Positions 1,085 to 5,882 of a stretch of DNA of 28,869 nucleotides are shown here, one piece after another (the stretch's first letter is position 1; every line of letters starts with the position of its first letter). The position numbers were made by a program, and so were the translations under genes. The DNA is from an uncultured Candidatus Saccharibacteria bacterium (lineage in GTDB: Bacteria; Patescibacteriota; Minisyncoccia; UBA6257; GWB1-50-10). The notes under the pieces are model-generated. The model had not been told where the DNA came from and did not search any database. It was given only the letters and a program-made list of their open reading frames with translations. The stretch covers positions 14,473 through 43,341 of the forward strand of contig CAZVSK010000002.1 of assembly GCA_964630035.1 (NCBI GenBank). Reading direction: 5' to 3'.

Positions 1085-1169
1085 TCAACTTATATTTACT
1101 AAAAATAAAGATTATGACAGAATAAACCTGAGCCGAGGTGGTCCGCCAGTGGGCGGATAAACTCCATTG

Positions 1170-1319: not shown

Positions 1320-1394
1320 CGTGCGGAAAGAGATTTGAACTCTTATTTCTCCCCTTTTCACGGTTGAGATCCTTTCCAATTAGACGATCCGCAC
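1320..1394 (-). tRNA. Atypical tRNA with Glu/Gln-type body and irregular anticodon arm (identity undetermined, possibly pseudo)
   Basis: Acceptor GTGCGGA/TCCGCAC, TC-GTCT-AATTGGAAA-GGAT D arm, T arm AAGAG-TTCAAAT-CTCTT, discriminator G. The anticodon arm CTCAACC-GTGAAAA-GGGGAG does not form a 5-bp stem in any register. Confidence 0.7.
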
Positions 1395-1411
1395 GACCGA
1401 ACGGCTCTGCG

Positions 1412-1484
1412 TAGAACCGACGGGATTTGAACCCGTGATTTCCACCTTATCAGGGTGGCGCCTTCACCACTCGACCACGGTTCT
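1412..1484 (-). tRNA. tRNA-Ile(GAT)
   Basis: Acceptor AGAACCG/CGGTTCT, anticodon stem CCACC/GGTGG with loop CT-GAT-AA, T arm ACGGG-TTCAAAT-CCCGT, discriminator A. Confidence 0.93.
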
Positions 1485-1506: not shown

Positions 1507-1537
1507 AAAAAATCCTGATAATAAATAATCAGGATTT
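1507..1537 (-). terminator. Intrinsic terminator ending the tRNA-like array
   Basis: 10-bp stem AAATCCTGAT/ATCAGGATTT with a T tract on the minus strand. Confidence 0.7.
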
Positions 1538-1546
1538 AAATAAGGG

Positions 1547-1626
1547 GGCGACGGGAGAAAATCTCCAAGTATTGGTTTTCTAAAATTTGAAAAACCGCCA
1601 CTCACTGTTCTTTCAGTTGCATCGCC
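1547..1626 (-). ncRNA. tRNA-like structured module E (diverged cloverleaf)
   Basis: 7-bp closing helix GGCGATG/CGTCGCC, 2-nt linker, 4-bp ACTG/CAGT arm, GGTTTT(T)C/GAAAACC arm, and a GGAG/CTCC arm stacked on the closing helix; no TTC T-loop. Confidence 0.4.
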
Positions 1627-1639
1627 ATGCAAAATGGTA

Positions 1640-1720
1640 GCGGATGTTTTCTTAAAACATCTTTTCATTTCAGTGTCCCAGCCGAAGTAACACTAAAAGA
1701 AAAATATAAGAAACATCCGC
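1640..1720 (-). ncRNA. Long hairpin module D
   Basis: GCGGATGTTTCTTA pairs with TAAGAAAACATCCGC (one bulge); inner TCTTTT/AAAAGA and AGTGT/ACACT stems; followed by TACCA. Confidence 0.45.
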
Positions 1721-1723
1721 GCG

Positions 1724-1796
1724 TGGACAGAAGAGGATTCGAACCCCTACTCTTCGCATCGAAGTGCGACGTTTTCACCAATTAAACTATCTGTCC
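1724..1796 (-). tRNA. tRNA-like module C, Arg(TCG)-like with 6-nt anticodon loop
   Basis: Acceptor GGACAGA/TCTGTCC, D stem GTTT/AAAC, anticodon stem TCGCA/TGCGA closing CTTCGA (6 nt), T arm AGGGG-TTCGAAT-CCTCT, discriminator A. Confidence 0.75.
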
Positions 1797-1802
1797 AAAG
1801 CG

Positions 1803-1849
1803 AACGGGCTTCAGGATTTGAACCTGCAACATTCTCGATGTATGCCCGT
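1803..1849 (-). ncRNA. Mini-tRNA module B (acceptor plus T arm, no D arm)
   Basis: ACGGGC/GCCCGT acceptor-like helix and CAGG-TTCAAAT-CCTG T arm, joined by only 15 nt containing an ACAT/ATGT mini-hairpin; 47 nt in total. Confidence 0.6.
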
Positions 1850-1872
1850 ATTTATATGTTTTTTAAAAAGGA

Positions 1873-1954
1873 GGAGGACCAACAACCATAGGTAATTAAC
1901 AAGAGGGACACTCATCTCGCGCCTCCCTAAGCGCGCCGCAACCGTCGATCCTCC
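1873..1954 (-). ncRNA. Structured module A (82 nt, first in the transcript)
   Basis: 11-bp closing helix GGAGGATCGAC/GTTGGTCCTCC (with G-U pairs) and internal 7-bp hairpin CGCGCTT-AGGG-AGGCGCG; GC-rich against an AT-rich background. Confidence 0.45.
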
Positions 1955-1970
1955 ATATGTGCTACAAAAA

Positions 1971-1999
1971 ATAGTAATTTAAGCTTAAAAAAGTGTCAA
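1971..1999 (-). promoter_or_regulatory. Near-consensus sigma70 promoter for the tRNA-like array
   Basis: TTGACA (1999-1994), 17-nt spacer, TACTAT (1976-1971); predicted start near 1964, about 10 nt before module A. Confidence 0.75.
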
Positions 2000-4640: not shown

Positions 4641-5882
4641 TTATTCATACCGAATCGCTTCAAGTGGACTTTTTTTTGTTGCTTTTAGCGCGGGAAAAAT
4701 ACCAAACGCGATTCCGACGAAGAGAGAAACTCCAACGCCAAGCAATATTCCTTGAAGTGAGATTGAATATAGAAAATTCAATCCAACAAAATTTTTCATA
4801 ATATAAACGAACCCGAGAGAGATGCCAACCCCTAAAAGAACACCCACAATTCCGCCAATACCCGTAAGAACCATTGATTCAAAAAGGAATTGGGAAAGTA
4901 CAGATTTGTTTGTCGCGCCAACGGCTTTTCTCAAACCGATTTCACGCGTACGCTCCGTCACTGACACAAGCATGATATTCATAATCCCCACACCTCCAAC
5001 AACGAGAGAAATCGCAGCCACGGAAGACAGAAGGATGGAAAAAATTCCCGTAATGTCTTCCACGCGATTTGAAATATCTTCCTGCGTCTGTATGAAAAAA
5101 TCGTCTTTGTCTGGATCTGTGATGTTGTGATTTTCACGCAAAACGGATGTCACATCTTTGATAACGTTCTCCACATTTTCCTGCGAAGATGCCTCAATCG
5201 TAATGCGCTGAAAATAATCTATTCCCAATATTTCCCTTTGCACTGCTGTGTATGGAGCAACCATTGTCTTATTAAAATCCAAAAAACTCCCCTTTCCCTC
5301 TTCTTTGAGCACCCCCACAACCTTCATTCTTTGACCTCTTATTGTTAAGGACGCACCAATTGGGTTTTCATTAGAAAATAATTTATCTTTAACACCCTGA
5401 CCAATGACCATGACGCGATTTCTTTCGCGAATATCATTTTCAGAAAAGAAATTGCCTTCTTCCACACTTAAATCAAAATTGTCTTTTATTATCTCGGAAC
5501 TGCCTATAAGTGTTGCATCAAAAGTTTCCCCGTTTCTCTCTGCAGAAACAATTCCGAATGCATACGGAACAATATTAACGGCATCGGGAACATTTTCTTT
5601 CTTTTTAAGATCTTCAAGGTCTCTCTCTGTAAGAGCATCGTTTGAAATAGAAGATGCCCCTCCCATAGGCCCGCGGGGCATTTTCCCCGGTAGAAGAAAA
5701 ATATTTGTTGGCCCAAAACGCTGTATTTCCTGAAAAATGAGACCTTGAGCAGATTCTCCAATTGATACAATCGCAACAACAGACGTGATGCCAACAACTA
5801 TACCCAAAATAGAAAGAAATGCGCGAAGTGGATGCATAAACACTCCTTTTCGCGCAAACATAAAAATATCGCGAACATACAT
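4641..5882 (-). CDS. MacB/FtsX-family ABC permease (paralog)
   Basis: Same motifs (GGVGIMNIMLVSVTERTREIGLRKAVGA, PLEAIRYE). Start moved to ATG 5882 (MYVRDIF) to avoid overlap with the ATPase gene. Confidence 0.9.
   Translation of the reverse strand: MYVRDIFMFARKGVFMHPLRAFLSILGIVVGITSVVAIVSIGESAQGLIFQEIQRFGPTNIFLLPGKMPRGPMGGASSISNDALTERDLEDLKKKENVPDAVNIVPYAFGIVSAERNGETFDATLIGSSEIIKDNFDLSVEEGNFFSENDIRERNRVMVIGQGVKDKLFSNENPIGASLTIRGQRMKVVGVLKEEGKGSFLDFNKTMVAPYTAVQREILGIDYFQRITIEASSQENVENVIKDVTSVLRENHNITDPDKDDFFIQTQEDISNRVEDITGIFSILLSSVAAISLVVGGVGIMNIMLVSVTERTREIGLRKAVGATNKSVLSQFLFESMVLTGIGGIVGVLLGVGISLGFVYIMKNFVGLNFLYSISLQGILLGVGVSLFVGIAFGIFPALKATKKSPLEAIRYE

Follow-up and report, generated by a model that had tools for sequence, protein, structure and literature searches.

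The stretch of DNA analysed here (the window, 28,869 nucleotides in full) is a fragment of a Patescibacteria (candidate phyla radiation, CPR) chromosome with a GC content of ~39%, in which the local gene order macB-macB-rsmE-nth-[RNA genes]-parA includes a group of RNA genes between nth and parA. The nth gene adjoining this group has its closest relatives in metagenome-assembled genomes of Patescibacteria/Parcubacteria. Our subject is the array of five structured modules, A to E, that occupies the minus strand of this interval and that we consider, by comparison with its relatives, to be a stable-RNA operon specific to one Patescibacteria clade. A first-pass annotation had proposed a dedicated non-coding operon at this site, bounded by a promoter and a terminator and tiled by closed modules, and these elements were recovered in our analyses. 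A promoter scan returned a sigma-70-type promoter on the minus strand (1971–1999), with TTGACA at 1999–1994, a 17-nt spacer and TACTAT at 1976–1971, i.e. 10 out of 12 matches. The scan alone is not significant (4 sites against 3.3 expected); in all ten related loci, TTGACA is invariant and is followed by a −10 box at ~17 nt. At the other end, a terminator scan identified an intrinsic terminator on the same strand (1504–1537), comprising a 10-bp stem (1537–1510), an 8-nt loop and a U run, and an equivalent hairpin and U run lie 3′ of E in every complete relative.

Folding of the minus strand from 1965 to 1505 (461 nt) gave a minimum free energy (MFE) structure of five independently closed units at exactly the coordinates of the first-pass annotation, with a z-score of −3.42 and none of 100 shuffled sequences equally stable. 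The plus strand also folds (z −5.34), so that the strand is not identifiable from folding energy; we assigned the operon to the minus strand because of its tRNA-like modules and of the G-U pairs in the closing helix of A and in E. The interval had been described as free of open reading frames (ORFs). Two small ORFs do exist, of 34 amino acids at 1811–1915 and of 55 amino acids at 1501–1668, and both run into tRNA-like or terminator sequence. We rejected them as candidate small proteins, as neither the peptides nor the frames of the 34-residue ORF (GGGAGG-7-AUG, within A) and the 55-residue ORF (from D to the terminator) are conserved in the related loci L041 or L048. A search of the window against Rfam at E≤10 assigned nothing to A, B, D or E, and in the window, L048, L051 and L053 it gave no hit at this threshold to RNase P RNA, signal recognition particle (SRP) RNA, 6S RNA, riboswitches, T-box leaders, hammerhead or other ribozymes, all of which were rejected as identities.

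A scan of species-representative genomes with the nth protein yielded 40 loci, among which the RNA region gave a BLAST match only in L001, where nth is 98% identical. The informative relatives were contigs encoding an nth of 81–86% identity (L041/42/44, L045, L047, L048, L050, L051, L053, L057 and L058). In the ten related loci, all from one Patescibacteria clade, synteny is kept, with the operon placed between nth and parA among housekeeping genes (nth, rsmE, macB, parA and parB), and a common plan is followed: promoter, A (optional), one or two tRNA-like modules, D (optional), E and terminator. A is present in 9/10 operons, D in 4/10 and E in 10/10, and an intact L-shaped module stands directly upstream of D or E in every one of the ten. 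The variety lies in the tRNA-like modules, which we number #1 and #2 in order and name below by the anticodon that their loops would suggest. Between promoter and terminator, L041 has A, a ‘Cys GCA’ module, a ‘Lys CUU’ module and E; L045 has A, a 5′ fragment of #1 fused to an ‘Ala UGC’ module, and E; L047 has A, a module with a 6-nt loop, one with a 9-nt loop, and E; and L053 has A, a 6-nt-loop module, a GAU module with 38 nt inserted in its D loop, and E. In L048, A is followed by ‘Gly GCC’ and ‘Phe GAA’ modules (the latter with A33 and an irregular arm), D, E, the terminator and a tRNA-Ile gene. The L050/L057 operon has A, a 6-nt-loop module, a module with a 7-bp stem and 6-nt loop, and E, with a tRNA-Ile and a weak tRNA-like module beyond the terminator. 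In L051, A precedes ‘Cys GCA’, an ‘Ala UGC’ lacking G3:U70, a short E and an extra hairpin before the terminator, and L058, which has no A, carries a single module with a 7-bp stem and GGGU tetraloop, then D, E and terminator.

Beyond this group the operon was not seen. By a covariance model of E, this module is lacking where nth identity is ~80% or lower, i.e. in L055, L056, L002 and the rest of the genome scan; a relaxed pattern scan for E in JGI metagenomes recovered only the already known L048 contig; phage and plasmid records gave no match to the operon, and viral contigs none to the cores of A, D and E. As the site is always nth-parA and these collections hold no match, a phage, plasmid or other mobile origin was rejected. 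By these searches, the distribution of the operon is that of a narrow clade of Patescibacteria.

Module E (1547–1626, minus strand) is a real structured RNA, a conserved four-way junction seen both in the MFE fold and with the covariance model. It is closed by a 7-bp helix, which leads via a two-nt linker (UA or CA) to a 4-bp hairpin with a 5–6-nt A-rich loop and then to a long arm with five conserved basal base pairs and a variable tip, the latter missing in L051. A third arm, of 5 bp, adjoins the closing helix at its 3′ strand, and the two together form a coaxial stack of 12 bp that resembles the stacked acceptor and T stems of tRNA. The covariance model (R1), built from four sequences, detects E in 10/10 operons with scores of 35–96 bits. 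When pairing was examined across nine distinct sequences, in an alignment fitted to the model, 97.6% of cells held standard pairs and 11 of 24 pairs had double-sided changes, compared with 37–60% paired and 0–2 double-changed pairs in slid-partner controls. Independently of the model, RNAalifold on a plain MAFFT alignment returned the same structure with 11/26 pairs compensated. The pair of columns 27/68 at the base of the long arm is G-U in 8/9 sequences, and a U directly precedes the closing helix, U(−1), in 9/9.

The cloverleaf topology without T-loop consensus described in the first-pass annotation is borne out by fold and covariation, and the Rfam tRNA model gave no hit on 1547–1626 at E≤10. 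Compared with canonical tRNA, the third-arm loops of E have 3–8 nt and no TTCRA, and the D-like loop has no GG, so that the resemblance is limited to the four-way topology, the UA linker and the 7+5-bp stack. Nevertheless, E is probably an old third tRNA unit that was remodelled, an origin suggested by R1 scoring one genuine tRNA (from L014) at 29.8 bits and by the spacer CGCAU, which precedes E and also follows modules #1 and #2. A 9-nt match between E and Escherichia coli 4.5S RNA (‘GAUGUAGCUG’) was judged a coincidence, as the motifs of SRP domain IV are absent.

Modules A and D are also closed hairpins, but of another kind. The first-pass annotation had described both as long hairpins, D being followed by UACCA, and this description stands; neither is of tRNA type, both being rods, of which A differs completely in its interior between relatives and D occurs in 4/10 operons. 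Module A (1873–1954, minus strand) is an 82-nt rod-like hairpin at the 5′ end of the predicted transcript, closed by GGAGGAUCGAC/GUUGGUCCUCC, and the window and eight homologues all give a long closed rod of ~85 nt in MFE folds. As the MAFFT alignment is out of register across interior types, which affects any pair counts drawn from it, we assessed A from the individual folds. The closing helix is conserved and covarying (for example UGGAGGGAU/AUCCCUCCA against ACAGAGGGAU/AUCCCUCUGU), whereas the interiors belong to three or more unrelated sequence types; the window has the interior type of L041 combined with a D and an E of the type found in L048. A motif in A of the window (‘GGAUCGACGG’) resembles the 5′ region of tmRNA. 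We rejected this identity because ARAGORN and Rfam gave no hit, the motif is absent from A of the relatives and there is no matching 3′ acceptor strand.

Module D (1635–1720, minus strand) consists in the MFE fold of an 81-nt AU-rich rod (1720–1640) with apical GUGUUACUUCGGCUGGGACAC, followed by UACCA at 1639–1635. It is carried only by the window, L001, L048 and L058, which hardly differ in the 5′ strand, the apex (GGUGUUACUUCGGCUGGGACACUGAA) and the 3′ foot (CAUCCGCUACCAUU) of D; the 3′ strand has a 9-nt deletion in L058. Window and L048 are 97.7% identical in D and 89% in E; this higher conservation of D suggests either sequence constraint or recent transfer. Separately, L051 has a further closed hairpin of ~80 nt (GCGGAAAU...AUUUCCGC) at 2785–2875 between E and the terminator, in a D-like position and of other sequence.

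The remaining two modules of the window are tRNA-like. Module C (1724–1796, minus strand) is the only one in the interval that ARAGORN and Infernal call a tRNA, as the first-pass annotation had anticipated: ARAGORN reports 1723–1796 as ‘tRNA-??? (tc)’, and Rfam RF00005 matches with 65.6 bits (gathering score 29) with one anticodon-loop position deleted. Pairing is complete in all four stems, and U8, G18 G19 and the T-loop GTTCRANYC, the nucleotides of the elbow, are present. The ‘anticodon’ loop, however, is the 6-nt CUUCGA (UCGCA-CUUCGA-UGCGA) rather than seven nucleotides with U33 and a purine at 37, and the L001 copy has the same loop. CCA is not encoded, and CGC follows as the trailer. C is homologous to the second module of L041 (L041_2), from which it differs by two double compensatory changes in the acceptor stem. 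To judge from these features, C is a tRNA-shaped RNA that would be unable to decode normally. Module B (1803–1849, minus strand) is a closed but truncated unit of acceptor stem, 4-bp hairpin, T arm with UUCAAAU, and discriminator U. It aligns at both ends with the full-length L048_1 (ACGGGCAUA...GCAGGUUCGAGUCCUGAGGCCCGUU), having the same acceptor strands, T arm and discriminator, with ~12 nt in place of the D and anticodon arms. This alignment agrees with the earlier description of B as retaining only acceptor and T arms, and by the same comparison B is an internally deleted copy of a full-length module.

The pattern seen in C recurs across the clade. We tabulated the stems of 18 tRNA-like modules and aligned 16 sequences, numbering positions on the first. 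In the 18, pairing of the stems is complete in nearly every case, with 6–7/7 in the acceptor stem, 3–4/4 in the D stem, 4/6 to 7/7 in the anticodon stem and 4–5/5 in the T stem. In the 16-sequence alignment T8, A9, G54, T55, T56, C57, A59 and C62 are invariant and G18/G19 are kept in ≥90%. In contrast, the anticodon loops have 4, 6, 7 or 9 nt, 6 nt being found in at least four independent modules, and several of the 6-nt loops could be drawn as a tetraloop closed by one more U-A pair. Anticodon calls conflict among near relatives with nearly identical bodies (the loops of module #1 include UUGCAGA, UUGCAA and CUGCAAA), and two ‘Ala UGC’ modules lack G3:U70. Between L050_2 and L051_2 the bodies are 98% identical and the anticodon arms 52%, with both arms fully paired. 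Of the ~15 independent lesions that we counted ourselves, 7 affect the 7-nt loop (binomial P ~2×10^-4 under a uniform spread), a density ~9-fold higher than in the rest of the body. No operon has lost more than one module: #1 is gone in the window (where B remains of it) and in L045 (where a 5′ fragment is kept), #2 is disrupted in L053, and L058 carries one module in all. In L053 (3347–3457), the 38-nt D-loop insertion duplicates AGUUGG and the body is otherwise a perfect tRNA-Ile(GAU) type. A CGC trailer follows 17/19 of the tRNA-like modules, none of the 19 has an encoded CCA, and U(−1) precedes most of them.

The starting point of these changes is visible in an outgroup. In L002, with an nth ~74% identical, the site between nth and parA holds promoter, tRNA-Ala(UGC), terminator and tRNA-Leu(CAA), and the same promoter and leader (GAATAGTATTTT) lie directly 5′ of the tRNA-Ala, which is canonical, with G3:U70 and A73. 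In the clade, module #1 is evidently homologous to this gene (79% body identity and the same anticodon stem). Because of the common promoter and leader and of this homology, we take the operon to have arisen from an ordinary tRNA operon. Relative to the outgroup, G3:U70 has been lost, the discriminators have been altered, A, D and E have been added, and the frame of the loop has shifted from CUUGCAA to UUGCAGA, UUGCAA or UUGCCAA. Canonical tRNAs at the same position in sister genomes had been named earlier as evidence that would count against the proposal. In part this is what is seen: the outgroup has its tRNA-Ala(UGC), and some relatives have normal-looking 7-nt loops, but their calls disagree among near relatives and ‘Ala’ calls occur without G3:U70.

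Taking these observations together, we tentatively favour the reading that the tRNA operon has been exapted and that its L-shaped modules serve as cutting handles, at which RNase P and RNase Z would release A, D and E. In this scheme a single sigma-70 promoter would give a polycistronic precursor of A, one or two L-shaped modules, optional D, E and the terminator; RNase P would cut at the 5′ ends of the tRNA-like modules and RNase Z after the discriminator, so that the modules would act as t-element-like punctuation freeing A, D and E as separate small RNAs. Probably E would be trimmed by the same enzymes, given its 7+5-bp coaxial stack and invariant U(−1). With decoding dispensable, the anticodon arm could drift to a plain hairpin and one of two redundant modules could decay. 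The layout is that of t-elements, with B and C only 3–23 nt from A, D and E in one promoter-terminator unit, and likewise in the ten loci; co-transcription of the modules is suggested by the single promoter and terminator. Several features are compatible with the predicted cleavage, namely U(−1) in 9/9 copies of E, the lack of encoded CCA and the CGC trailer after 17/19 modules. Encoded CCA is an RNase Z anti-determinant. The reading builds on what is observed at these loci, i.e. the architecture and its conservation, the structure of E, module bodies that stay intact although their anticodon loops are broken, and an origin at a tRNA-Ala site, while transcription, the cleavage sites and the role of A, D and E as functional products are predictions.

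Several points weigh against this reading. Processing at the module boundaries is purely a prediction from the arrangement of the sequence. A is absent from L058 and D from 6/10 operons, and for this reason A and D would not be essential products; A is likewise absent from the outgroup L002. The L001 copy of C has two stem-breaking substitutions, giving mismatches in the D and T stems. The canonical-looking loops of some relatives (GCA and CUU in L041, GCC in L048, UGC in L051 and L045) could belong to working tRNAs. Furthermore, working tRNA genes may be the recent source of the modules, in which case their stems would be paired without local selection. The locus as a whole is also a recombination mosaic, so that the high identity of the bodies may reflect recent exchange and not long purifying selection.

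The evidence for recombination comes from two comparisons. The window from 1318 to 2450 is 98–100% identical to 4200–5331 of L001 (contig JBFLWN010000005) over the 3′ two-thirds of nth and the whole RNA cluster only; the RNA operon differs by 1.3%, the flanks are 15–45% divergent, and the similarity stops abruptly at 1318, which points to a recent recombination or transfer tract. We therefore rejected the window-L001 comparison as a test of selection. Seven of the differences from L001 cluster at 2005–2035, just upstream of the promoter. In the second comparison, L047 and L053 have identical spacers and terminator loop and differ sharply in the interior of A, the promoter spacer, one anticodon loop, and the distal and third arms of E, which suggests either short-tract mosaic recombination or faster change at hairpin tips. 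Third codon positions of nth are only 47–67% identical among genomes, compared with 95–98% for several module bodies, a contrast that at face value would mean strong purifying selection; because L047 and L053 also share identical spacers, this yardstick is weak evidence only. Four observations stand in spite of the mosaic: E covaries, lesions are concentrated in the decoding loop, no operon lacks an intact L-shaped module, and the anticodon arm has become a plain hairpin on a perfect body, as in L058 and L050_2.

Such exchange is also what would be expected if the locus merely reflects the birth and death of redundant tRNA genes, in which Ala- and Ile-derived spares come and go by recombination and inactivation, B and C are plain pseudogenes, and A and E are leader and trailer structures or independent small RNAs. 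This is the main rival to the cutting-handle reading, possible though in our view doubtful. The mosaic pattern would then be frequent allele exchange, and individual modules do look like genes caught in decay: the 38-nt D-loop insertion of L053_2 accompanies a good GAU loop, whereas in L047_2 the D loop is intact and the anticodon loop has 9 nt, B is internally deleted, #1 of L045 is reduced to a 5′ fragment, and the mismatches in the D and T stems of C in L001 arose within a near-identical tract (3/73 positions differ between the two copies of C, compared with ~1.3% in the tract overall). Simple decay accounts less well for the ~9-fold enrichment of lesions in the anticodon loop, or for the retention in each operon of at least one module with perfect stems and an invariant elbow. 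Nor does it account for the 6-nt loop common to L047_1 and L053_1, whose bodies differ at 1/57 positions though their promoter spacers and A interiors have diverged, or for the 7-bp stem and tetraloop that have replaced the arm on a perfect body in L058. Moreover, the streamlined genomes of Patescibacteria are not expected to retain dead genes in ten loci. The first-pass annotation had left the choice between a decaying tRNA array and tRNA mimics selected for processing or elbow recognition. With paired stems, an invariant elbow and loops of varying length, shape or processing is favoured for the L-shaped modules and E, whereas decay is true in part, namely for B, the L045 fragment, the L053 insertion and the substitutions in C of L001.

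Compatible with the cutting-handle reading, and with the others, is the suggestion that A is a transcription attenuator, its GC-rich closing helix and the U run behind it stopping most transcripts shortly after the promoter and allowing regulated read-through into the tRNA-like modules and E. We regard this as rather unlikely. The spacer 3′ of A (1850–1872, minus strand) consists of a run of U and then a run of A (UCCUUUUUAAAAAACAUAUAAAU); it serves as the AU-rich leader 5′ of B and, together with the closing helix of A, resembles a terminator. In all nine loci that have A, this helix is 8–11 bp long with a GGAGG/CCUCC core, a run of 4–8 U follows within 0–4 nt, and a comparable (N0–4)-U-run-A-run lies 3′ of A; relative to L002 and L058, A has been inserted between the conserved leader and the first tRNA-like module. 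Although the stem and U tract of an intrinsic terminator are thus found in 9/9 loci, the ‘loop’ would be 55–65 nt of structured RNA, which is atypical, and the site was not called by the terminator scan. We found no alternative antiterminator pairing, and the interior of A is hypervariable, with its three or more unrelated types, which also argues against a ligand-binding aptamer in A.

An unlikely alternative in our estimation is that the L-shaped modules are themselves the functional product, as non-decoding mimics, recognised by elbow and acceptor end and with diversifying anticodon-arm tips, that could serve as decoys or sponges for tRNA-binding enzymes or for nucleases that target tRNA, as regulators mimicking uncharged tRNA, or as aminoacyl carriers outside translation. 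The nucleotides of the tertiary interactions are fully kept while the decoding loop is lost, arms have been replaced wholesale on near-identical bodies with the stems still paired (L050_2/L051_2), several of the 6-nt loops can be read as tetraloops and L058 has a GGGU tetraloop, and the differences between L047 and L053 cluster at hairpin tips while the spacers are identical, all of which speaks for such mimics. On the other hand, no gene for a partner protein is linked, the neighbours being nth, rsmE, macB, parA and parB; single modules can be truncated or disrupted; the identity elements are inconsistent, with ‘Ala’ loops lacking G3:U70 and discriminators of U, C or A; and matches to tmRNA or YrlA are absent in Rfam or ARAGORN. 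It is similarly improbable that the locus encodes a Patescibacteria-specific system in which non-decoding mimics act as decoys or sensors for tRNA-binding or tRNA-cleaving factors, and not solely as processing handles, alongside three new RNA classes, with the interior of A, the anticodon arms and the distal arm and third-arm loop of E as rapidly exchanged or diversifying tips on conserved frameworks. We also looked by eye for kissing pairs between these hypervariable tips, i.e. between the anticodon loops and the A and E loops of one genome, and rejected them as there was no consistent complementarity. Finally, it is very improbable that C and related modules function as tRNAs that decode in an unusual way, for example through frameshifting or doublet reading with a 6-nt loop, because the anticodon is not conserved: although at least four independent modules combine such a loop with an otherwise perfect tRNA body, loop sequence and length vary between near-identical bodies, calls conflict among close relatives and include ‘Ala’ without G3:U70, and the Leu CAA and Ile GAU tRNAs of the locus have normal loops.

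A second transcription unit, absent from the first-pass annotation, lies 3′ of the operon terminator and ends at a terminator at 1302–1280. It contains a tRNA-Ile(GAU) gene (1411–1484, minus strand), called by ARAGORN and by Rfam with 69.2 bits, with a normal 7-nt loop. An extended −10-like box (TGTATAAT, 1507–1500), read by eye, lies 5′ of it and overlaps the U tail of the operon terminator, and the same layout with a −10-like box is found in L048 (4150–4257). The tRNA-Ile of the window has a Ser/Tyr-like D arm (GUCG-AGUGGUGA-AGGC), U8-G9 and an A1-U72 pair. Downstream is a weak tRNA-like module (1320–1394, minus strand) with an irregular anticodon arm, scored by the Rfam tRNA model at 35 bits and not called by ARAGORN. 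Its L057 homologue (1847–1921) has a covarying acceptor stem (GUGCGGA/UCCGCAC against GUGUGAA/UUCAUAC), a cloverleaf MFE fold, and a 6-bp stem with an 8-nt loop. As this module is conserved in L057 and has an irregular arm, the non-decoding theme would extend to the second unit.

A tRNA-Leu(CAA) gene (1170-1255) lies on the plus strand, opposite to the operon. Upstream of it (1131–1169, plus strand; 2968–3008 in L051) we noted GCCGAGGUGG, a hairpin (UCCGCC-NNNN-GGCGGA) and UAAACUCCAUUG; the other tRNA-Leu(CAA) allele, that of L045, L053 and L057, has GCCGAGGUGG at its 5′ end, and the upstream element resembles a leftover from the replacement of one allele by another. The orientation of tRNA-Leu is opposite to nth in the window, L041, L048, L047, L056 and L058 and the same as nth in L002, L045, L053, L055 and L057. 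Some of the relatives carry further genes around the operon. In L051 a 115-amino-acid ORF with no Pfam match is inserted between nth and the promoter; L045–L050 and L057 have an ORF of 213–214 amino acids without Pfam hits between rsmE and nth, which is not in the window; and in L047 a gene with a metallo-β-lactamase fold (5075–5740; weak hit to the Anti-Pycsar protein Apyc1) is inserted between the operon and parA.

If the cutting-handle reading is correct, these loci would document a stepwise passage from a tRNA operon to a small-RNA operon, with a plain gene in the outgroup, modules without identity elements in the relatives and only acceptor and T arms left in B of the window. The operon would add three structured RNAs (A, D and E) beyond Rfam in a lineage with largely uncharted non-coding RNAs, and its natural tRNA bodies without decoding would help to define what RNase P, RNase Z and the CCA-adding enzyme require. 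The practical reach of such work is limited by the very narrow distribution, ten loci in one clade of uncultured bacteria. Our literature search on tRNA-like RNAs in Patescibacteria/CPR found nothing relevant.

Processing handles of tRNA-like shape, operonic spare tRNA genes and bacterial tRNA mimics are all already known, and the operon can be compared with each. Like the t-elements of plant mitochondria and the mascRNA of MALAT1, it places non-decoding, tRNA-shaped modules in a longer precursor beside non-tRNA RNA. In Haloferax, a t-element upstream of 5S rRNA has been used experimentally to release crRNA (PMC4326828). In t-elements the cuts by RNase P and tRNase Z define the ends of the neighbouring RNA, whereas cleavage is predicted by analogy for the present operon; the part that matters in t-elements is the acceptor and T arm, which fits the retention of exactly this part in B. 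The differences are that the operon described here is bacterial and tandem, with two or three non-tRNA RNAs, and that its modules keep the full D- and T-loop consensus and are recent derivatives of tRNA-Ala/Ile-type genes. On the reading that we favour, it would be a bacterial counterpart of the t-element/mascRNA principle, with the tRNA shape kept for RNase P/Z processing.

Operonic tRNA arrays (the cryptic trn operon and L-arrays) likewise hold extra tRNA genes under one promoter, some of them pseudogenes, and roles outside translation have been raised for them; they comprise up to 43 genes, and in Anabaena 23/26 were detected and aminoacylated (PMC8421152). The operon resembles them in having extra tRNA genes under one promoter with pseudogenes among the members, but differs in that there are only one or two modules, mostly with 4-, 6- or 9-nt loops or indels, flanked by A, D and E. 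With tmRNA (RF00023) and YrlA (RF02553) it has in common that acceptor, T arm and elbow are kept without a functional anticodon loop. It differs from tmRNA in that ARAGORN reports none, the Rfam tmRNA clan gives no hit at E≤10 and there is no tag reading frame, and YrlA was rejected because its hits score 18.3–25.3 bits, below the gathering score of 69, and extend over two neighbouring tRNA-like modules, with no rsr or rtcB nearby. With the canonical tRNA operon of L002 it shares the site, the promoter, the leader and genes without CCA. A bacterial operon that alternates tRNA-derived, non-decoding modules with three RNAs absent from Rfam, and in which the intermediates are still visible, appears to be undescribed.

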